Origin: a phage
Strand: one strand, 5' to 3'
NCBI GenBank assembly: GCA_030877765.1
Contig: GCA_030877765.1_4853.1
DNA: 46,671 nucleotides
The first letter of the stretch is position 1; each line of letters begins with the position of its first letter. A model generated the notes under the pieces. It was not told where the DNA came from and made no database searches. It saw only the letters and a list, made by a program, of their open reading frames with translations. Of this stretch, positions 2,859 through 34,205 are shown one piece after another. Made by a program: the position numbers and the translations under genes.

Positions 2859-3803
2859 TTATAAATTAAACTGTTTTTTGAACCATTCAGGCGTTTCCAT
2901 TTCTATGACAGGATTACCCATTGAATAACCGGGCCACGAATTGGCTTTTTTGCACGCCTTGTAAATTTCCATAGCGCCATGCAACTGAATTCGACCGATG
3001 CGTAATTGCTCTTCAGTCAAGCGAATTAACGCAGGAATAAATGGTGCTTTCTTTTCCTGAACGAGAAGATTAACAGAGCGTGGCGCATGACCATATGCCG
3101 CAACAAACATGTCGTGCTGCATCGCCATTTTCATAAAGTACCCAAGTCTCGCAGCATGACGGAAAAACTCTTCTGGCTTGGCGCTCACCGCTGTTTTGTA
3201 GTCGATGATGTCGCCACCTTTGGTAAGGCAGTCAAAGCGAACTTTTGCCTTCTCTCCGTTAAGTTCACCTAGAATTGACACTTCAGCATAAGCACCAGCG
3301 AGAAGACTGCTGTAATAGCTGTTTGCGTGGATTACAGCACGCATTTGCTGAATAGCGTCATAATCACCACCTTCCAGCATTTGCTTTCCTACAGCAGCTT
3401 TTTCAGCCTCTTCACGGATGACATCGTAAATTTTCACTGGCTCGCCAGTCGCCTGGATGATTTTGATCACCTCAGCTTTCGACTTTCCTGAAAGTCCTTT
3501 GATGCCTCGTTCTTTTGCCCATGAGTTCATATCACTTACAGTAACAAGCAGGTCATCACCAAAATCTTCTTTGGTTGGCATTCGTGCATATTCAGCATCA
3601 AAACGCTCTGGTTCAAGCAACGCAGTATGGCTACCTGTACCGAATATAAGAGCTTTTGATTGCTCATCCTCTTCGTCTTTGTATCGCCATGCTGCCGGGC
3701 ATCTGTCAAGTATATTCCATAATCCAGAACCATTAATGTGCTCTGTGTCAGCATGATAATCCTGATTGCTTAATTCATTGTTGAAATAAACTCTCATCAT
3801 CAC
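2859..3803 (-). CDS. PD-(D/E)XK family nuclease (RecB/Cas4-like exonuclease)
   Basis: GGDIIDYKT motif with downstream acidic residues; same operon as ATPase and SSB as in phage recombination modules. Confidence 0.65.
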   Translation of the reverse strand: MMMRVYFNNELSNQDYHADTEHINGSGLWNILDRCPAAWRYKDEEDEQSKALIFGTGSHTALLEPERFDAEYARMPTKEDFGDDLLVTVSDMNSWAKERGIKGLSGKSKAEVIKIIQATGEPVKIYDVIREEAEKAAVGKQMLEGGDYDAIQQMRAVIHANSYYSSLLAGAYAEVSILGELNGEKAKVRFDCLTKGGDIIDYKTAVSAKPEEFFRHAARLGYFMKMAMQHDMFVAAYGHAPRSVNLLVQEKKAPFIPALIRLTEEQLRIGRIQLHGAMEIYKACKKANSWPGYSMGNPVIEMETPEWFKKQFNL

Positions 3804-4426
3804 TCTCCGTGGTTACAGAATTCTTTATGCATCTTTTCTCTGAATTTCATCACAGACAACCTCGCTCTCTCAATATCATTGAATAACCCAAGATGGTATC
3901 TTTTCCCGTTAACATCACAGTAAGCATGCCACTTTTTAACCTGTTTTTGCCAATACACACCTTTAACTCCTGATGTGTTATTTTTTGGTTTTTTAGCGTT
4001 ATACTGGTTCTGCATATTTGTTGCGATTCTTAAGTTGCAAATCCTGTTATCGTCACGCACACCGTTAATGTGATCAATTTGACCTTCAGGCCAGAAACCA
4101 TAATAAATCAACCATACCAAGCGATGCGCGTAGTATCTTTTATTATTTATGCTTATCTCTATGTATCCGTTATGTTTTTTCCTGCCAGCGACACTACCCT
4201 TTCTTACACCTCCACCCGTCTTATTTCTAATGAAAACCCCTGTTTCATGGTTGTAATTTAAGCTATCCAAAACAACATAACGTGGTATTCTTTTTCTTCT
4301 TCCTATGGTGTTTGACTCTGCACTTCCCTGAGCAAAATCTTGCTTTTGCAGTTCCGATAAACTCATTTCCACAAACCTCGCACTTCTTAACGGTGATAGC
4401 CATTTCTTACCCTCTATTGTAATCAT
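3800..4426 (-). CDS. HNH-AP2 homing endonuclease (paralog 1 of 4)
   Basis: AHRLVWLIYYGFWPEGQIDHINGVRDDNRICNLR (HNH) followed by NTSGVKGVYWQKQVKKWHAYCDVNGKRYHLGLF (AP2). Confidence 0.85.
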   Translation of the reverse strand: MITIEGKKWLSPLRSARFVEMSLSELQKQDFAQGSAESNTIGRRKRIPRYVVLDSLNYNHETGVFIRNKTGGGVRKGSVAGRKKHNGYIEISINNKRYYAHRLVWLIYYGFWPEGQIDHINGVRDDNRICNLRIATNMQNQYNAKKPKNNTSGVKGVYWQKQVKKWHAYCDVNGKRYHLGLFNDIERARLSVMKFREKMHKEFCNHGE

Positions 4427-4907: not shown

Positions 4908-6812
4908 TTAAAATTCTTTTCGGTGGATTATGTCGCGACCTTTATCATTAATACGATGCGTGATGCGTTTTGGCGCTTTAATCAACCCCGCATACATCAT
5001 GAACTGCTTGGCGTTCTGGTATTTCAATATTTTCCCAGCCATTGACTTATCATCAAGGTGTGGGAATACAGCCTTTGCCTTGAACATGTTTTTCATGTGA
5101 GTTGCGCCGCCATAAGGGTAGAAAACTTCATTAGCCCAGCCTTCTTTGCCATCACAACGGTTAATCCAGTAGCGATATAAAATCCCCTCTCCGTCCTTCG
5201 TTAGTTGAACCTTGAAATCCATAACATCAGCCCACTCGTTATCTGTATAAGCACGCTCATTCAGTGCCGAATTAGGGTCGCGCAACACGTGATCGCAATG
5301 TCTGCAATAGCGCGCAGTGGGGTCGTTTTTAGTGCCGCAACCATCATCAAAAATCCGGATTCCGTGCTTATCAAAACCGCAACGGATGTAACTGAAAAAT
5401 TCTTCGCAGCGACCATCTGGAGATAGCGGGTCTTTCCCTATGCATCGACGCGCATATGGGCTGTTCATTGTTCCACATGTATGACACGGAACTTGTTCGC
5501 CACTGCGTTTTGAACGTTGCGCTTCAGCCTCTTCCAGAATCGGGTCTTCATACAGCTGACCAAGCTCAAACATCGTGCCAGAGAAATCAAGAACCAGATG
5601 GTCTTCTTTATGATACCCGGCATCAATTTGCTCTTTCTTCAGTAGGCGCATTCCGCGACCAAGAAGCTGGACAAGGAGAGTTAGCGACATTATTTTTCGC
5701 AATATGCAGCTCGTATCCCATAACGGTATATTTACGCCAGTGGTAAGGGCGGCTATCTGGAATGTGAATTTTTTACGCCCGGTGTATGCATCTTTTAGAG
5801 CCTTCCTTCTGGCTTTTGACCCCATATCTTCTGTAACTATTGAATAACTTCCTTCGGGTAGGTATTTTGCCGCCTCCTGACAATGTTTTTTACCAGCACA
5901 TGTAATCAGTACGCCGTTTCTGTTTTTAGTCAACTCCATAACCTTGAGCATGATTTTCTGCGTCAACGTACCTTGCTCAAGAATTTCTTTCTGCATCTGC
6001 TTGAGCTGCTCGGCGGTAAAGTCCTGAGTACCATCAACATCTGAACCATGAAAATCCGAAAGGTCATAATGCAGACTATCAACATCATGAAGACCAAAAA
6101 TTGTTGGAACAAGAAAACCGTTTTCAACCATGTACTTGGTGTCTATGTTGATAATCTCTTTCTTCCAGAAAGCGCCTTTTATTGATGTAGTTCCGCGAAA
6201 CGGTGAGCCTGTATAACCTATTATTCTCAACTCATGGCCATGCTTATCTTTACACCTTTTCATTAGCTCATTAATTATCACTGCATACTGCGTATCACCA
6301 TTATTAACAACATCAATGTCATTAACCATATGATTTTCATCGATCAGCAGGAATCTTGGGCAAAAGTCAGAGAGCGCACCTTTTGCAATAACATTCCCAT
6401 GCTCATCTTTTTTATCAAACAAAGCATTTACAACAGTACCCTCAGAACCACAGATTATTGGGTACGTAGAACTTTTCCTACCCAACGAAGCACTGAATAG
6501 CGAGTTTCTAACACCAAGCAACCATAGCTCTTCCGCATCTTGCTCCACTATTTCGCCCTGTCTTGATAAAATCATCCCTGAATAGCCCATCTCCTGAAAA
6601 CGCTTTGCTATCATGGCAATCATCAGTGACTTTCCGCTACCGACACTTGCTGTTACATAGCTTGGGCCAACATAATGACGAATCACATCGCCAGTTAACT
6701 TATATATCAACCACTGATAGGGTCTTGGCTCGATATCACCAGTATCCAGATAAGATTTCAGCAGATTAATATCAATCTCTGAAATCATTTTGTCGATTTT
6801 ATGCATTACCAA
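4908..6812 (-). CDS. SF2 DEAD/DExH-box DNA helicase with C-terminal Cys-rich zinc-finger region
   Basis: Walker A ASVGSGKSLM, DExH box LLIDENHMV, helicase C-domain motifs, C-terminal CHTCG...CRHCDH clusters. Confidence 0.85.
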   Translation of the reverse strand: MVMHKIDKMISEIDINLLKSYLDTGDIEPRPYQWLIYKLTGDVIRHYVGPSYVTASVGSGKSLMIAMIAKRFQEMGYSGMILSRQGEIVEQDAEELWLLGVRNSLFSASLGRKSSTYPIICGSEGTVVNALFDKKDEHGNVIAKGALSDFCPRFLLIDENHMVNDIDVVNNGDTQYAVIINELMKRCKDKHGHELRIIGYTGSPFRGTTSIKGAFWKKEIINIDTKYMVENGFLVPTIFGLHDVDSLHYDLSDFHGSDVDGTQDFTAEQLKQMQKEILEQGTLTQKIMLKVMELTKNRNGVLITCAGKKHCQEAAKYLPEGSYSIVTEDMGSKARRKALKDAYTGRKKFTFQIAALTTGVNIPLWDTSCILRKIMSLTLLVQLLGRGMRLLKKEQIDAGYHKEDHLVLDFSGTMFELGQLYEDPILEEAEAQRSKRSGEQVPCHTCGTMNSPYARRCIGKDPLSPDGRCEEFFSYIRCGFDKHGIRIFDDGCGTKNDPTARYCRHCDHVLRDPNSALNERAYTDNEWADVMDFKVQLTKDGEGILYRYWINRCDGKEGWANEVFYPYGGATHMKNMFKAKAVFPHLDDKSMAGKILKYQNAKQFMMYAGLIKAPKRITHRINDKGRDIIHRKEF

Positions 6813-12695: not shown

Positions 12696-12849
12696 ACAGA
12701 AAGTCTGGCAACTCGCAAAGCAGCACGAATTAGACGATTTCATCGAGAAGGTTGCAAAGACATTCCCTGACGCGCTTGAAGTCGTTCATGTGCAGACGCG
12801 AAATGAAAATGCATGGTGCTACACAAAAAATCATACAAATGGTAGATGA
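12682..12849 (+). CDS. Hypothetical small protein (55 aa)
   Basis: ATG at 12682 within track ORF 12616-12849. Confidence 0.3.
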   Translation: MQTTKQKVWQLAKQHELDDFIEKVAKTFPDALEVVHVQTRNENAWCYTKNHTNGR

Positions 12850-13276
12850 AATGAAGCTAACAAAAAAACAACGCGAAGAGCTACGCATGAAGTTCGGTGG
12901 TCGCTGTGCTTATTGTGGGTGTGAGCTACCCGAGAAAGGTTGGCATGCAGACCATGTTGAACCAGTGCTACGTAAATCTGAGCAGTGCATGAAGGCAGCG
13001 GCGAAAGGGATTTTCAAGCTGAAGGCAACCGGTGAGCTATATCGACCAGAAGCAGAGCGACTGGAAAACCTTTACCCTGCGTGCGCCCCCTGCAATCTGA
13101 TGAAAACTTCCTATTCCCTGGAAATGTTCAGGAAGCAGGTATCTCTTCAGGTTGCTCGTGGGCGCAAAAGCAGCATGAATTTCCGCACTGCAGAGCGTTT
13201 CGGTCTTATCGCCGTGGTGGAGAAACCAGTTGTTTTCTGGTTTGAGAAATACCAGGAAGAGAACGAAAAAAAATAA
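12839..13276 (+). CDS. HNH endonuclease (terminase-associated type)
   Basis: CAYCGCEL...HADHVEPV...ENLYPACAPCNLMK: Cys4-type HNH motif, positioned just upstream of the terminase genes. Confidence 0.8.
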   Translation: MVDEMKLTKKQREELRMKFGGRCAYCGCELPEKGWHADHVEPVLRKSEQCMKAAAKGIFKLKATGELYRPEAERLENLYPACAPCNLMKTSYSLEMFRKQVSLQVARGRKSSMNFRTAERFGLIAVVEKPVVFWFEKYQEENEKK

Positions 13277-22478: not shown

Positions 22479-22862
22479 TCACGCATAAAGCGCCTCCATC
22501 TTGTACCCAAACATAATTGCATTCTGATGCTCAGTGCTACCAGAAAACACCAGATAGCGTTTACCTCGATTATCCGTAACGATGTAGGCAGCTGGTGAGT
22601 TTTCCTTCCTAAATCTGGCTTCGTCATCACTCCCTTCATACATCCTCCCACTCGCTGGCAGATACAAATCGAATGTTTGAATTTCCGTTCCGCTGCATTC
22701 ATTGCTACGTTCATTGAACAGGATAGCCAATCTTGGGTTGCCATTGGAATGCTTTGCAGGGAATGCGATTCTCCAGCCATCGTACATATACTGACTTGGG
22801 TAGGATAGCCATGACTTACCGCGCCTACCCTCCGTAAGAATCGGCTTACTCGCCATTATGAT
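22479..22862 (-). CDS. Hypothetical protein (about 127 aa from MASKPILTEG)
   Basis: Track ORF 22479-22904; internal ATG preferred. Confidence 0.45.
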   Translation of the reverse strand: MIMASKPILTEGRRGKSWLSYPSQYMYDGWRIAFPAKHSNGNPRLAILFNERSNECSGTEIQTFDLYLPASGRMYEGSDDEARFRKENSPAAYIVTDNRGKRYLVFSGSTEHQNAIMFGYKMEALYA

Positions 22863-23121
22863 CCTCCACAATCCGCACCAGTGAGCACTCAAGATTCGGT
22901 GCATTGTAATTACCAGCCAGAAACAGCACGCTACCAGTGCTAATAAGCACCTGCTTCGCGTTCGCCTGCGACAGATTCTGCACGATGAATTGCGCTGTTT
23001 CTGTGCCGATTTTCAGCACTGCGCTGCCGTCGCTGTTCAGTGATACAAGTTGTGCGGAAGTGTCAGTAATGTTGGTGAAGTTCGCGTTTCGCTGCGCGAT
23101 TGTGATGTCGCAAAAAGACAT
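22846..23121 (-). CDS. Hypothetical protein (91 aa)
   Basis: Operon-coupled ORF. Confidence 0.4.
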   Translation of the reverse strand: MSFCDITIAQRNANFTNITDTSAQLVSLNSDGSAVLKIGTETAQFIVQNLSQANAKQVLISTGSVLFLAGNYNAPNLECSLVRIVEDHNGE

Positions 23122-23423
23122 TATTTAATCTCTCCGTTCAGTTCATTAACAATTAACGTTGCATAGCCAGCAATATCTTTCCAGCTGTCATCATAAGTCG
23201 GGTCGCCATTCAGAATGCGCCCAATCTTGTGCTGAATCATGTCGAGCGCCTCGCGTTGACTTGGTGTGAGATTGCGCCAGCCATCTACCTTGCGCATCAC
23301 ATCTTTCAACTCCTGCATAATTTCAGCGCCGTCTTTGAATTTACCGTATCGACTACCGCGTTCGGTGATGAGTCGCTCTGTTGCGTCAGTATGGCGCTTA
23401 TCGCCCGTGATTTGTGAACTCAT
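23121..23423 (-). CDS. Hypothetical protein (100 aa)
   Basis: Operon-coupled ORF. Confidence 0.45.
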   Translation of the reverse strand: MSSQITGDKRHTDATERLITERGSRYGKFKDGAEIMQELKDVMRKVDGWRNLTPSQREALDMIQHKIGRILNGDPTYDDSWKDIAGYATLIVNELNGEIK

Positions 23424-23910
23424 TGTGATGCATTCTCCTGAATTCTTTTATTTTTGCTTCTGCTTCTCTTATGTCGGAAAAGTAACCAACTGTGAATCTT
23501 TTGCCATTTACTCCAACTCTTGCATGCCACTTGTTGTGCGATGAACTCCAGTTAACCCCCTTGATACCGCTAGTGTTGTTTTTGTTCATTGCTTTGTTGT
23601 GGCTATTCTCAAATTTGCTGGCCTCCCTTAAATTGCACGCCCTGTTGTCATTGCGAATGCCATTAATGTGGTCAATCATTTCACTTGCTGGCGCGCCATG
23701 AATGCATATCCATGCCAATCTGTGAGCAAGAAAAGCCCTACCGCAAAGAATTATTTGCACATATCCATCTGGCTTTAAGTAGCCAGCCACACTCCCTTTT
23801 TCTGCAATCCTATTCCTTGTCTTTAGCCATTTAAATTCCCCAGTTAGTGGATTGTAGTAAAGGTAACTCAATATAAACTCCCTACTCGGCTCATCTCTCC
23901 TATGCCTCAT
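23398..23910 (-). CDS. HNH-AP2 homing endonuclease (paralog 3 of 4)
   Basis: AHRLAWICIHGAPASEMIDHINGIRNDNRACNLR followed by NTSGIKGVNWSSSHNKWHARVGVNGKRFTVGYF. Confidence 0.85.
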   Translation of the reverse strand: MRHRRDEPSREFILSYLYYNPLTGEFKWLKTRNRIAEKGSVAGYLKPDGYVQIILCGRAFLAHRLAWICIHGAPASEMIDHINGIRNDNRACNLREASKFENSHNKAMNKNNTSGIKGVNWSSSHNKWHARVGVNGKRFTVGYFSDIREAEAKIKEFRRMHHNEFTNHGR

Positions 23911-30179: not shown

Positions 30180-30205
30180 AAAAGGGGGTTTATCCCCCTT
30201 CTTTG
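30180..30205. terminator. Bidirectional terminator
   Basis: Stem aggggg/ccccct with T-runs on both strands; on the minus strand it overlaps the last codons of 30190-30996. Confidence 0.75.
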
Positions 30206-30996
30206 TATCTAATTTCACCGTAAACCATGTACTGTAACATGTAACAAAACTCCCATTCCGTCATATCTGTCCGTAGCCACTTCCTGTTCTTCTTGTAATT
30301 GTACTCCGCCAGCTCCGCTTTTAAATTGTGAAGAGCATTAACCAGTTCTGGATATACGAGGTTATTCTTAACAAACCAGTTGACAGATAAAATATGGTCA
30401 ATATGCCAATTATTGCGGTCATCAAAACTCATCCATGGAAGCATGGTTGATTTTATATGCTTAATGAAATCATCCTTTGAGTACCCGAGAACATCATCTA
30501 CTGTTCTATCAAGCGCAATGTCAGATACTCTCATATCAAGCCGCTCAAGCATTTTTCTTAGGAACACGTGGTGTGGGTGCTTCTTTTGCCATTGCCTGAC
30601 ATTATCCAGAGCCTTTTTATTGCCTTTCTCTGAGTAGTACCATCTGCGATAAGCTTCCCTTTTCTTTTGTAAAAACTCCTCCTTTTTCTCTGGATTCTCG
30701 TTAAGCCTTTGCATCTTCCTTTTGTTGTACTCCTGTTGTGATTGTTTTCTTTTCTTTTTGTACTCGCTGTTATCCTTGTTTTTCTGCCACTCCTTTTTTC
30801 TGTACTCACTTTCCTTGCGTTTGCGCTCCTCTGTTGTTCTCTGCTTCCTTGTTCTTTCGTATACGCAATGCTTGCATCCGCCTGATGCTGTAAAAAACAC
30901 AGTTCCACCACATACAGAGCATGGAATCCATTCACACACAAATTGCTTCAGTCCAGCAACCCTTGCTTCTTGCGCGGCTTCTTTTCTTGTTTTCAT
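30190..30996 (-). CDS. Zinc-ribbon, Lys/Glu-rich protein with C-terminal HNH-like motif
   Basis: N-terminal CEWIPCSVCGG...CKHC; long KRKE-rich middle; C-terminal NNWHIDHILSVNWF. Confidence 0.5.
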   Translation of the reverse strand: MKTRKEAAQEARVAGLKQFVCEWIPCSVCGGTVFFTASGGCKHCVYERTRKQRTTEERKRKESEYRKKEWQKNKDNSEYKKKRKQSQQEYNKRKMQRLNENPEKKEEFLQKKREAYRRWYYSEKGNKKALDNVRQWQKKHPHHVFLRKMLERLDMRVSDIALDRTVDDVLGYSKDDFIKHIKSTMLPWMSFDDRNNWHIDHILSVNWFVKNNLVYPELVNALHNLKAELAEYNYKKNRKWLRTDMTEWEFCYMLQYMVYGEIRYKEGG

Positions 30997-32145: not shown

Positions 32146-32170
32146 AAAAGCCCCGCAAGGGGCTTTTTAT
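32146..32170. terminator. Bidirectional terminator
   Basis: Stem agcccc/ggggct with gcaa loop; T-runs on both strands. Confidence 0.8.
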
Positions 32171-32172
32171 TG

Positions 32173-32709
32173 CTACAGACGCATAGGCATAACAACAATC
32201 TTCGCAGTCTCTCCAGATGGCGCACTAAGACAGCAAACAGCGGCATCTGTGTTTCCATTTAGTTCAAATTTAACGCAACAGAATCTTGGGTTAAACAGCT
32301 TTGCCACCTTCTCGATATCAACAAGGTAGCCAGCATTGAAGCCAATTTTCTCTGCAGGCAAGGTCTGATTCGGAATGACGCGATCAATATCAGGGAATCG
32401 ACCATCAATCTCTTCGCAGATACCTGCTCCAACCATCGCGCCGGCTTCATCATGATACGTTGCAATTTTCGACTTTGTATCAATGATGGCGTGCTCATAA
32501 CGCTTTGTTGGTGACTTGCCAATCTTGATGATTACATTTTCTGTCAGCTTATTGTCATGGTTGCCACCAATAAATGCGCGATGACCGTCAGTTGAGGCAA
32601 TGCGACCATCTTGCATAAAGCAAATACCATTCAGGTAGTAGCGCACATCATTGCGAGCCTGAAAGATTAATGCTGATTCAAGTAATAATTTGCTGATTTT
32701 TAGTTTCAT
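32173..32709 (-). CDS. Truncated DnaN-like sliding clamp (beta-clamp) fragment
   Basis: Blocks shared with E. coli DnaN as recalled: DVRYYLNG, TDGHR, DGRFPD, IGFN..Y.LD, C-terminal VVMPMRL. At 178 aa it is about half of a full clamp. Confidence 0.7.
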   Translation of the reverse strand: MKLKISKLLLESALIFQARNDVRYYLNGICFMQDGRIASTDGHRAFIGGNHDNKLTENVIIKIGKSPTKRYEHAIIDTKSKIATYHDEAGAMVGAGICEEIDGRFPDIDRVIPNQTLPAEKIGFNAGYLVDIEKVAKLFNPRFCCVKFELNGNTDAAVCCLSAPSGETAKIVVMPMRL

Positions 32710-32882
32710 CACTTCACCTTAATCATGTGTTGTTTTGCAACCTTCAGGCATTCTTCAAAAATGCCACCATTCTTTGCGCTCTGATTGCGCTTGTAATACT
32801 GAATTGCCGCATCAATTGCCATCTGGTCGATTTCAGGCAGTTTTGCGCGCAGCTGTTTTTCGATGAATTGTTCGGCGTTCAT
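32709..32882 (-). CDS. Small protein (57 aa)
   Basis: ATG 32882; stop overlaps the clamp-fragment start (TGATG); below track cutoff. Confidence 0.3.
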   Translation of the reverse strand: MNAEQFIEKQLRAKLPEIDQMAIDAAIQYYKRNQSAKNGGIFEECLKVAKQHMIKVK

Positions 32883-32967: not shown

Positions 32968-33777
32968 TCACATCTTCTCCAGAATTGCCATAACCTCGTG
33001 AATGTCAGCAACAGGAATCTGAATAAATTCCTCATCCTCTGCCACCACATGACCAGCAGGGAGAATTACATGGTCAGCTGGCTTCAGTAACTCAATCAGG
33101 CGGTCTACTGGCTTAATCTTTTTCGACTTCAGCACTTTGGCTGTGACCTTATCCTTGCCTTGCGCCTTCGCTTCTTCGACCGCTTCGTCGATAACTTTTA
33201 CCGCATCATCTCCATGTTCGCGCGTTACCGCTACGGCATTTGCATAGCTGATCTGTCCGGCACTGATTCGCGCTTTTACTTCCGCAGGCACATCACCCAA
33301 CGACAGGTGCATTTGCACGTCAGATACTGAGCGGCCTACCTTCTTGGCGATTTCCTCGTTTGTCCAGCCAAAACCTTTCAGACGCGTGTAAGCCTTTGCG
33401 CGTTCAAACGGGTCAAGTTGCTTGCCCTGACTTGATGACACCATGAATGCGATTTTGTCAGCCTCGTCGCCAGTAAAATCCTTACACTCAATGCGAACGA
33501 TTGGTGCGCCGCGCTCAATGGCTCGCAATGCGCCGAGGTAGCGATGCTGCCCATCAAGAATGCGGATACCTTTATCGTCAGGAATAACTGTTAATGCTGG
33601 CAATGGCTGACCTGACTCCCAGCACTGCGCGAAATATTCCACATGCTGCTCATCTGCTTCACGGATGTTGTATCCCGGCTCCAGATAGATTTGCTCTACT
33701 GGCACGAGGTAGGTTTTGTTAACAGCGATACCGTTACGCGTTTCTTTGTCTGAATAGATTTTGCTTAGTGTTTTCAT
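32968..33777 (-). CDS. ParB N-terminal domain (ParB/Srx-like) nuclease-type protein
   Basis: ILDGQHRYLGALRA motif; central HTH-like segment (EEIAKKVGRSVSDVQ). Confidence 0.7.
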   Translation of the reverse strand: MKTLSKIYSDKETRNGIAVNKTYLVPVEQIYLEPGYNIREADEQHVEYFAQCWESGQPLPALTVIPDDKGIRILDGQHRYLGALRAIERGAPIVRIECKDFTGDEADKIAFMVSSSQGKQLDPFERAKAYTRLKGFGWTNEEIAKKVGRSVSDVQMHLSLGDVPAEVKARISAGQISYANAVAVTREHGDDAVKVIDEAVEEAKAQGKDKVTAKVLKSKKIKPVDRLIELLKPADHVILPAGHVVAEDEEFIQIPVADIHEVMAILEKM

Positions 33778-34118
33778 TATTTCTTTCCTAATGCTTTATT
33801 GATAGATTCTTCAGCTAACAGCAATTCATCTGGGTATTGTTCATTCCAGTTTTGTTTGTATGCCTTGCTAAGCATTTTTTGCAGAGCTTCAAGCAACTCA
33901 GGTGCTGCTGCCATTAAATTAAAGTCATGCTCAACACTGCTATCAATCTCCCAATGCATCCCGTTGTATTTAGCACCCTTGCTAGAGAAGGCAATATTTC
34001 TGTCATCGTCGTGGTGACAGCCAGGTGTGTCATCAGTTCGACAAGACGGGTAAATAGCTGCGCAACCCCCGCGAATGTCTGCGACCCACGGCCCGGGCGT
34101 ACCTTTAAATTCTTTCAT
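33777..34118 (-). CDS. KEFKGT-motif protein, paralog B
   Basis: MKEFKGTPGPW...AAAPELLEALQ...INKALGKK; the RBS-start context GAGGTGATGAAAATGAAAGAATTTAAAGGTACG is shared with paralog A. Confidence 0.6.
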   Translation of the reverse strand: MKEFKGTPGPWVADIRGGCAAIYPSCRTDDTPGCHHDDDRNIAFSSKGAKYNGMHWEIDSSVEHDFNLMAAAPELLEALQKMLSKAYKQNWNEQYPDELLLAEESINKALGKK

Positions 34119-34159
34119 TTTCATCACCTCTAATATTTATTGTTGTTTCTACGTCACTA

Positions 34160-34205
34160 ACTATAAACGCACCACCAATCTACGTCAACAGGAATATGCT
34201 AAAAT
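34160..34205. promoter_or_regulatory. Divergent promoter pair (duplicate of 20932-20977)
   Basis: Minus strand TTGACG, 17 bp, TATAGT; plus strand extended -10 TGcTAAAAT. Confidence 0.6.

Follow-up and report, generated by a model that had tools for sequence, protein, structure and literature searches.

A truncated DnaN homologue encoded by a Deseoctovirus-like phage retains the partner-binding cleft of the beta clamp at the sequence level

At the partner-binding pocket of the bacterial beta sliding clamp, the activities of polymerases for replication, repair, and translesion synthesis are coordinated with those of the clamp loader, Hda, and the mismatch-repair proteins; this hub is an antibiotic target as well. 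Escherichia coli reportedly makes a shorter dnaN product as well, beta*, which Skaliter and Livneh are said to have described in 1996 as arising from an internal start and comprising domains II and III; this natural truncation lacks domain I, keeps all of domain III, and reportedly forms a working ring. The clamp-binding motif (CBM) follows the pattern Q-phi-x-L/M-(x)-F/L (PMC11139829), and the pocket that receives it is composed of subsite I (R152, L155, T172, G174, H175, R176, L177, P242, R246, V247, V360, and M362) and subsite II (H175, N320, Y323, V344, M362, P363, M364, and R365) (PMC11139829). Mutation of I272 and L273, which lie in the domain III region that meets domain I at the dimer interface, turns beta monomeric, and the monomeric variant binds delta ∼50-fold more tightly than the dimer and supports no processive synthesis (PMC11139829). 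This I272A/L273A variant (delta complex, PDB 1JQJ/1JQL) is engineered, full-length, and three-domain; it forms no ring, still presents the cleft, and may be regarded as the best experimental analogue of a protein consisting of the cleft alone.

Phages are known to make use of the clamp or to block it, and phage factors that act within the beta clamp-client network have also been described. The N4 protein gp8 acts against delta. Twort Gp168 (PDB 7EVP) is a phage protein acting on the clamp, and a further phage factor acting on the clamp system is MuC of phage Mu (PMC12867686). All three are ligands that bind beta or delta, and none of them is a clamp mimic. Phages additionally carry DnaN homologues of their own, and many full-length examples are listed in BFVD; those grouped in phrog_947 (“DNA polymerase processivity factor”, 345-395 aa) keep three domains and plausibly form rings.

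The stretch of DNA analyzed here (the window; 46,671 nucleotides, contig GCA_030877765.1_4853.1 of assembly GCA_030877765.1) is essentially the complete genome of a Deseoctovirus-like siphophage. Its nucleotide identity with Salmonella phage ST1UNAM is 95%, and with E. coli phage C1 it is ∼90%. The window contains, on the minus strand, a gene for a protein of 178 aa counted from its ATG, termed mini-beta in the following (Table 1). An AAGGTG Shine-Dalgarno sequence precedes the ATG, and an alternative GTG one codon upstream would give a product of 179 aa. The first-pass annotation of this DNA, made from the sequence alone, had described the gene as a half-size DnaN fragment on the strength of several blocks shared with the E. 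coli protein. All of these blocks are found in the ORF, with two small differences in wording: the phage block at residues 101-107 reads IDGRFPD, VDGRFPD being the E. coli version, and residues 122-131 read IGFNAGYLVD as compared with IGFNVSYVLD in E. coli. The pI of mini-beta is 8.2, vs. 5.25 for E. coli beta.

Table 1. Positions in the window of the mini-beta gene, of its DnaN-like sequence blocks, and of the other features of the leftward unit.
Feature	Position	Strand	Remarks
Mini-beta CDS	32173..32709	-	178 aa + stop; corresponds to DnaN domain II + second beta-alpha-beta3 motif of domain III
DVRYYLNG codons, residues 21-28	32626..32649	-	DnaN D150-G157; includes pocket R152, L155
TDGHR codons, residues 40-44	32578..32592	-	DnaN T172-R176, wall of pocket subsite I
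IDGRFPDIDRVIP codons, residues 101-113	32371..32409	-	DnaN V237-P249; includes pocket P242, R246, V247
IGFNAGYLVD codons, residues 122-131	32317..32346	-	DnaN I317-D326; includes subsite II N320, Y323
C-terminal VVMPMRL codons, residues 172-178	32176..32196	-	DnaN V360-L366; pocket floor + gate (M362, P363, M364, R365)
57-aa ORF, phrog_4439, unknown function	32709..32882	-	Stop overlaps mini-beta start (TGATG)
ParB-like protein, 269 aa	32968..33777	-	DGQHR-type N-terminal domain + ParB HTH
116-aa ORF, phrog_1273, unknown function	33777..34127	-	First gene of the leftward unit
Sigma-70-like promoter match (TTGACG, 17 nt spacer, TATAGT)	34160..34188	-	Upstream of the four-gene unit; weak
Intrinsic-terminator-like hairpin	32146..32167	-	9 bp stem followed by T-run; begins 6 nt past the mini-beta stop

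The resemblance to the clamp greatly exceeds what chance would give. A phmmer search against PDB sequences returned enterobacterial beta clamps (E=5e-10 to 3e-9) and, except for one weak unrelated match (E=0.49), beta sliding clamps alone. Mini-beta residues 7-120 align with E. coli DnaN 136-254 (domain II) and residues 121-178 with DnaN 316-366 (second half of domain III), at an overall identity of ∼31%, and a profile of the mini-beta family scores 97.9 bits against E. coli DnaN. The 178-aa protein does not have the three-domain architecture of DnaN (∼366 aa), and it scores far under the curated cut-offs, with 34.8 bits for TIGR00663 (cut-off 137.65) and 16.6 and 14.0 bits for the Pfam families PF02767 and PF02768 (cut-off 27); the Pfam scan gave no match to PF00712, the DnaN N domain. 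The full-length phage clamps of phrog_947 match only residues 17-116 (E=5e-9), and mini-beta belongs instead to a separate group of proteins of ∼180 aa, phrog_3007, in which residues 1-178 match profile positions 1-186 of 190 (E=4.4e-61).

The AF2 model of mini-beta is a compact monomer predicted with very high confidence (pLDDT 97, pTM 0.91). Comparison with DnaN structures had been proposed in the first-pass annotation as a check of the fold, and the outcome agrees with it: the model has the DNA-clamp fold of repeated beta-alpha-beta3 motifs, and in a Foldseek search of the PDB the best 50 matches are all beta clamps. The predicted secondary structure consists of three modules. Module 1 is a beta-alpha-beta3 motif corresponding to the first half of domain II, module 2 is a beta-(loop)-beta3 motif corresponding to its second half, in which a 9-residue G/P-containing loop replaces the second helix, and module 3 is a beta-alpha-beta3 motif that runs to the C-terminus; this arrangement implies that mini-beta comprises domain II and a further half-domain. 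Of the three helices expected to line the channel, the model predicts two. The assignment of module 3 is ambiguous in the family-profile alignment because the two halves of domain III are homologous repeats, and the first half was considered as an alternative. It was rejected, since the IGFN..Y and MPMRL motifs are specific to the second half and blastp reports an alignment to DnaN 316-366 only.

The first-pass annotation had further stated that the protein lacks domain I and much of domain III and that it retains the residues of the cleft, and both statements are borne out. Nothing in mini-beta aligns to DnaN 1-135 or 255-315. As the alignment covers only DnaN 136-254 and 316-366, the dimer interface, formed by domain I with the domain III region bearing I272 and L273, is absent. 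Searches of the whole window with E. coli DnaN (tblastn and phmmer) found no other DnaN-like piece, so the missing clamp parts have no complement there. The CBM pocket between domains II and III, in contrast, is present at the level of sequence: 16 of the 18 listed pocket residues (PMC11139829) are identical to those of E. coli beta, and the two differences are at L177 (A45 in mini-beta) and V344 (T154).

Compared with E. coli beta (PDB 2POL/1MMI), mini-beta thus shares domain II, the last beta-alpha-beta3 motif, the pocket, and the C-terminal MPMRL, but it is half the size and lacks domain I and DnaN 255-315, and with them the canonical dimer interface; it also has a loop in place of the second helix of domain II. 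Like the monomeric I272A/L273A variant, it would present the cleft outside a ring, though it lacks the domain III loop that gives that variant extra contacts with delta. Like beta*, it is a natural truncation without domain I, but it additionally lacks half of domain III and belongs to a separate phage gene family. Gp168, MuC, and gp8 enter the same network from the opposite side: they are ligands, whereas mini-beta, as a clamp mimic, would bind ligands. Taken together, these comparisons support mini-beta being a real truncated DnaN homologue that is unable to form the canonical ring and has retained the partner-binding cleft.

The gene is not a one-off but a member of a large phage family that has already been annotated in GenBank as DnaN or a fragment of it. 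The family is defined here as stand-alone proteins of ∼165-215 aa that carry the motifs [KR]xDxRYYLNG, T[DN]GH, DGxFPD..RV, IGxN..Y, and C-terminal MPxR[LIV], all of which are present in the window protein; MPxR stands at the extreme C-terminus in most members. An exhaustive profile search of 1.84 billion cluster representatives yielded 4266 proteins with E<=1e-3, of which 511 had E<=1e-10; genuine DnaN is included in both counts. Among the 150 best-scoring representatives, 135 have a length of 160-220 aa, stand alone, and carry these motifs. By tblastn, the gene was found in 274 of 50,697 phage records, the hosts of these phages including Salmonella, Escherichia, Klebsiella, Vibrio, Burkholderia, and Proteus. 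Many phage proteins of 180-250 aa in BFVD share the predicted compact fold, with TM up to 0.90. A search of the full-text literature, the coverage of which is incomplete, found no functional or structural study of the family (truncated phage DnaN); as far as could be found, the cleft-only reading, the family-wide conservation of the pocket, and the distribution of the family appear to be undescribed, the existence of the gene itself having been annotated already.

Conservation within the family is concentrated on the pocket. In an alignment of 112 diverse members, the pocket columns have a mean conservation of 0.73, compared with 0.38 for the other columns (Mann-Whitney p=1.3e-6), and pocket residues make up 10 of the 14 best conserved columns. 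D21, R23, Y25, and L26 are kept in at least 92% of these 112 members, as are G42 (99%), H43 (95%), P106 (98%), and Y128 (94%), and the positions of R176, V360, and M364 vary across the family. The median pairwise dN/dS between mini-beta and 43 relatives is 0.107, and the gene is functional rather than a decaying fragment. As judged from these alignments, it is clearly the cleft that selection maintains throughout the family; the canonical ring-forming elements are gone, and mini-beta looks like a clamp reduced to its client-binding cleft.

The reading that we tentatively prefer, plausible though far from assured, is that mini-beta is a soluble, non-ring mimic of the cleft that competes with host beta for clamp-binding proteins. 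The retained domain II and second half of domain III would together build the CBM pocket, the losses being domain I, the dimer-interface half of domain III, and one helix expected to line the DNA channel. Made together with other early or replication-associated genes, mini-beta would bind CBM-bearing host proteins in solution and be unable to tether them to DNA, and by capturing their CBMs it would compete with DNA-loaded host beta for clients, as a decoy or “sponge”. Peptide binding, a monomeric protein, competition, and the targets named below all belong to what is proposed. Since the phage itself needs host Pol III, the targets worth titrating would probably be clients that depend on only one CBM, for which a monovalent competitor would suffice; the replicase should be less affected because of its multivalent anchoring. 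Candidate targets are Hda, MutS/MutL, free delta, and the translesion polymerases (Pol II, IV, and V), whose abundance is high after SOS induction. If this reading is correct, a natural competitor or receptor for clamp clients would represent a new mode of host takeover, and the protein might serve as a compact tool with which to probe or perturb clamp-client traffic in vivo.

Several points weigh against competition by a cleft mimic. A strong general competitor would be expected to harm the carriers that depend on Pol III, which is why selectivity has to be part of the argument: the phage of the window encodes no DNA polymerase and must therefore use the host holoenzyme, so a protein that tied up Pol III alpha or delta without discrimination would be harmful to it, and the lambdoid carriers are in the same position. 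Two pocket positions differ from E. coli beta, and three others (those of R176, V360, and M364) are variable in the family. In several phages the gene is part of the replication module or stands at its start, which would fit a positive role in replication equally well. The edges left exposed by the deletions could also mediate oligomerization.

The genomic setting bears on these points. In the window, mini-beta is the last gene of a four-gene leftward unit inside the morphogenesis region, in the order 116-aa ORF, ParB-like protein, 57-aa ORF, mini-beta, and terminator hairpin. The replication and recombination genes lie at ∼1.8-10.4 kb, so that helicase, primase, and recombination genes are more than 20 kb from the unit. 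The promoter match upstream of the unit is not significant alone, as one site was found vs. 4.1 expected in shuffled sequences. The ParB-like protein matches Pfam HTH_ParB (E=2.5e-11) and phrog_1033 (E=3e-91), and its matches to TIGR00180 and DGQHR are under the cut-off. Neither a DNA polymerase gene nor a clamp-loader gene is present in the window, and no gene of the cassette had a match in PADLOC. The placement in a leftward accessory cassette rather than in the replication operon, as first described, therefore holds for this window but not for the family, because elsewhere the gene lies beside replication genes (cII/O or VRR-NUC/helicase).

Carriers of mini-beta are of three kinds: some encode a PolA of their own, some, such as the phage studied here, encode no polymerase, and some are lambdoid phages with O/P-type replication. 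The first kind includes EP23 and the Kagunavirus fFiEco03, in which a family-A polymerase and mini-beta occur together; the proposition that the family is confined to polymerase-less phages and hence recruits Pol III was accordingly rejected as a general rule. The occurrence of all three kinds implies a function independent of any one type of phage replisome and suggests a generic target in the host. In Dhillonvirus EP23, Naesvirus Bcep43, and a Kagunavirus, mini-beta lies alone and antisense inside the head module. It adjoins Dam or Dcm methyltransferase genes in Skarpretter, R20L, and C1, follows directly after VRR-NUC and helicase genes in LIET2, and in contig L058 is flanked by a ParB-like gene and a DEAD helicase gene. 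In a lambdoid temperate clade the order is cI, cro, cII, mini-beta, O, and a DnaB-like or DnaC-like gene, an order confirmed in the isolated Hafnia phage yong1. An association with methyltransferase genes recurs (C1, Skarpretter, R20L, LIET2, and Bcep43) and is not universal; no CBM was seen in the methyltransferases that neighbor mini-beta.

The main rival to the cleft mimic, possible but somewhat unlikely, is that the protein acts as an adaptor or hijacker. The cleft would capture a host CBM protein, for which Pol III alpha or epsilon, the clamp loader through delta, Pol I, and ligase are candidates, and a second, lineage-specific surface would deliver it to the phage replication machinery, that is, to the helicase-primase, an O-type initiator, or the neighboring ParB-like DNA-binding protein, with the effect that phage DNA synthesis is favored over that of the host. 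The neighborhoods described above lend themselves to this reading: the gene sits between cII and the O and DnaB-like or DnaC-like genes in lambdoid phages, it adjoins helicase and VRR-NUC genes in LIET2 and L058, and the ParB-like gene is co-transcribed with it here and adjacent to it in L058. The phage of the window, moreover, encodes a helicase and a primase of its own; lacking a polymerase, it must recruit host Pol III. These same neighbors nevertheless change from lineage to lineage (ParB, methyltransferases, cII, VRR-NUC, or none); three genera have the gene isolated and antisense within the head module, and some carriers encode a PolA themselves. A second conserved surface is not apparent, the most conserved columns being those of the pocket or of structural loops, and a polymerase whose CBM was occupied by mini-beta would be in competition with its own binding to the real clamp.

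A broader form of the same idea is that a cleft-only clamp has been kept repeatedly by phages as a portable CBM receptor, through which the Pol III core (alpha/epsilon) or the clamp loader (delta) would be handed to a phage helicase-primase, initiator, or ParB-like clamp. We consider this unlikely; if true, it would mean that the host polymerase can be hijacked without a ring, and in lambdoid phages the CBM-like tail at the C-terminus of CII might be a further ligand of such a receptor.

Phage-encoded CBMs were also sought, by a motif search of the phage's proteins and of the neighbor genes of related loci, and no credible conserved CBM was found in this phage's own proteins. The sequence QMHLSL of the ParB-like protein fits the hexamer but was rejected, since it lies inside the ParB HTH domain (residues 120-202); it presumably aligns with the conserved LxLLxLP helix of canonical ParB. 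Separately, QNAIMF occurs close to the C-terminus of the ORF at 22479-22904.

That mini-beta binds a non-canonical tail rather than host CBM proteins, and so regulates the stability or availability of the protein bearing it, is quite improbable. The candidates here would be the C-terminal tail of CII in lambdoid phages and other acidic-hydrophobic C-terminal tails. The cII gene directly upstream of mini-beta encodes proteins ending in ...SQIDMHF, ...SQVTMNF, ...SQISMEF, and ...EQITINF in contigs L062, L064, L067, and L084/L088, respectively, and these tails fit Q-phi-x-[L/M]-x-[F/L], the last of them nearly so. Most of the cII genes beside mini-beta, however, encode other endings (...TFSA, ...SIRA, and ...FFEA), and the virulent carriers, including the phage of the window, have no cII at all. 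The adjacency may also be incidental, as the order cII-O is the standard lambdoid layout.

A genuine processivity clamp, in which a closed homo-oligomeric ring would tether host Pol III or phage PolA, is very doubtful. The clamp fold is modular and pseudo-symmetric, so that, for example, four copies of three beta-alpha-beta3 motifs would supply a ring of 12 motifs; two-domain beta* reportedly acts as a trimer, and many records name the family “sliding clamp” or “processivity factor”. Against this stand the missing canonical interface elements, the prediction of only two of three channel-lining helices, the very confident AF2 prediction of a compact monomer, the concentration of family conservation in the pocket rather than at the edges or helices, and the lack of a clamp-loader gene in the window.

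It is hardly credible that mini-beta is a poison subunit that blocks ring closure or recycling by pairing with a protomer of host beta or by capping a clamp that has been opened, a suggestion of the first-pass annotation that is disfavored here. The beta-sheet edges exposed by the deletions could in principle extend a host beta sheet, but the natural interface is gone on both sides (domain I, and DnaN 255-315 with I272 and L273). With both halves of the canonical interface missing, the sequence offers no basis for normal joining with a host beta protomer. The phage also needs working host clamps, having neither a polymerase nor a clamp of its own, and poisoning on a global scale is unlikely in view of the need of this phage and of the lambdoid carriers for the Pol III, beta, and clamp loader of the host.

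The notions that a full-length phage dnaN has decayed here to a non-functional remnant, and that the gene encodes a RusA-like Holliday-junction resolvase, take their support from the phrog_3007 label and from the annotation of Bcep43 gp15 as a “fragment”, and can be set aside given a dN/dS of ∼0.1, conservation of length and motifs over hundreds of clusters, a pLDDT of 97, no match to the RusA family in Pfam or NCBIfam scans, and structural neighbors that are all sliding clamps, with no RusA fold among them. GenBank records variously name the gene “DNA polymerase III beta subunit”, “sliding clamp”, “DNA polymerase”, or “hypothetical”, others call it “processivity factor”, and the note to Bcep43 gp15 reads “DNA Pol III b subunit fragment”. 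Many RefSeq records, following PHROGs (phrog_3007), label it “RusA-like Holliday junction resolvase”. This PHROG name is erroneous, and the present analysis corrects an annotation that has spread through RefSeq.

The 57-aa ORF is found directly upstream of mini-beta in ∼50 related contigs. In phage C1, its sequence forms the C-terminal part of the 112-aa gp24, which is annotated as a methyltransferase, gp23 and gp24 of that phage being two adjacent methyltransferase ORFs. The ORF was considered as a universal partner of mini-beta and rejected, as it is conserved only among close relatives. By eye, it resembles the ORF upstream of mini-beta in Vibrio phage R20L.

Among the products of the 46.7-kb genome of the window phage are helicases of the DUF3987 and DEAD-box types, a zinc-ribbon primase encoded by a gene of its own, and exonuclease VIII-like and Sak4-like proteins. 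A further protein matches phrog_824, of unknown function, and is the positional counterpart of a gene annotated as VRR-NUC in the related phage C1. No DNA polymerase or clamp loader gene was found anywhere in the window, and the phage must therefore depend on the host Pol III holoenzyme. The family of its half-size DnaN homologue, mini-beta, carries the name "RusA-like Holliday junction resolvase" in PHROGs (phrog_3007), a label passed on to many RefSeq phage records, among them NC_054651, NC_016566 and NC_005342. This label is an annotation error, because both the sequence and the fold of phrog_3007 are those of a beta-clamp derivative.

A candidate partner for the clamp pocket comes from lambdoid contigs, in which mini-beta is directly preceded by a cII gene (Pfam Phage_CII). 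Several of the adjacent CII proteins end in SQIDMHF, SQVTMNF or SQISMEF, all of which match Q-phi-x-[L/M]-x-[F/L], the six-residue form of the clamp-binding motif, or in the near-match EQITINF. The C-terminus of lambda CII, ...SEQIQMEF, is its FtsH-degradation tail, and over-expression of CII reportedly inhibits host DNA replication. The CII C-terminal tail might be linked to the clamp pocket.

In the window, mini-beta is translationally coupled through TGATG to a 57-aa ORF (phrog_4439, unknown function) that also lies immediately 5' of mini-beta in ∼50 related contigs. The sequence of this ORF recurs in phage C1 as the C-terminal part of gp24, a 112-aa ORF annotated as a methyltransferase and neighbored by a second methyltransferase ORF, gp23. 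A cytosine-methylase segment of ∼1 kb is present in ST1UNAM and HC6 and absent from the window. In phages that are otherwise unrelated, genes for DNA methyltransferases of the Dam or Dcm type are repeatedly found 0–4 kb from mini-beta, and no clamp-binding motif was seen in those neighboring methyltransferases that were inspected.

Mini-beta is also co-transcribed with a ParB-like gene, whose product combines a ParB helix-turn-helix with an ILDGQHRY motif representing a DGQHR/ParB-Srx type N-terminal domain. This pairing was observed solely in the clade of the window phage and one further mini-beta contig, L058. ParB proteins are CTP-gated DNA clamps, and a functional pairing with a cleft-only mini-beta is therefore conceivable.

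In three different genera, mini-beta lies on the opposite strand within the head-morphogenesis module, flanked by a Mu-F-like head protein gene (or its neighbors) on one side and by scaffold, protease or capsid genes on the other; the window copy likewise lies within the structural region.

Features of the window and of related mini-beta loci and contigs (L-numbers)
Feature	Source	Position	Strand	Remark
57-aa ORF	window	32709-32882	(-)	directly upstream of mini-beta
ParB-like gene	window	32968-33777	(-)	
HNH/endonuclease-VII-like gene	window	3800-4426	(-)	
HNH/endonuclease-VII-like gene	window	12752-13276	(+)	
HNH/endonuclease-VII-like gene	window	23398-23910	(-)	
HNH/endonuclease-VII-like gene	window	30190-30996	(-)	antisense insertion just after major capsid gene
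Putative 141-aa ORF	window	22479-22904	(-)	
Mini-beta in head module	L003 (EP23)	5998-6510	opposite to module	
Mini-beta in head module	L004 (Bcep43)	5998-6579	opposite to module	
Mini-beta in head module	L006 (fFiEco03)	4962-5483	opposite to module	
cII ORF upstream of mini-beta	L062	3828-4169		Phage_CII
cII ORF upstream of mini-beta	L064	5471-5983		Phage_CII
cII ORF upstream of mini-beta	L067	5115-5408		Phage_CII
cII ORF upstream of mini-beta	L084/L088			Phage_CII
Methyltransferase gene near mini-beta	L005 (Skarpretter), L007 (R20L), L001 (C1), L008 (LIET2), L004 (Bcep43)			

Four HNH or endonuclease-VII-like genes, probably encoding homing endonucleases, are dispersed along the window genome. 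Elsewhere in the window, a putative 141-aa ORF carries, close to its C-terminus (residues 127-132), the sequence QNAIMF, which resembles the hexameric motif QTSMAF of the Pol III epsilon subunit.
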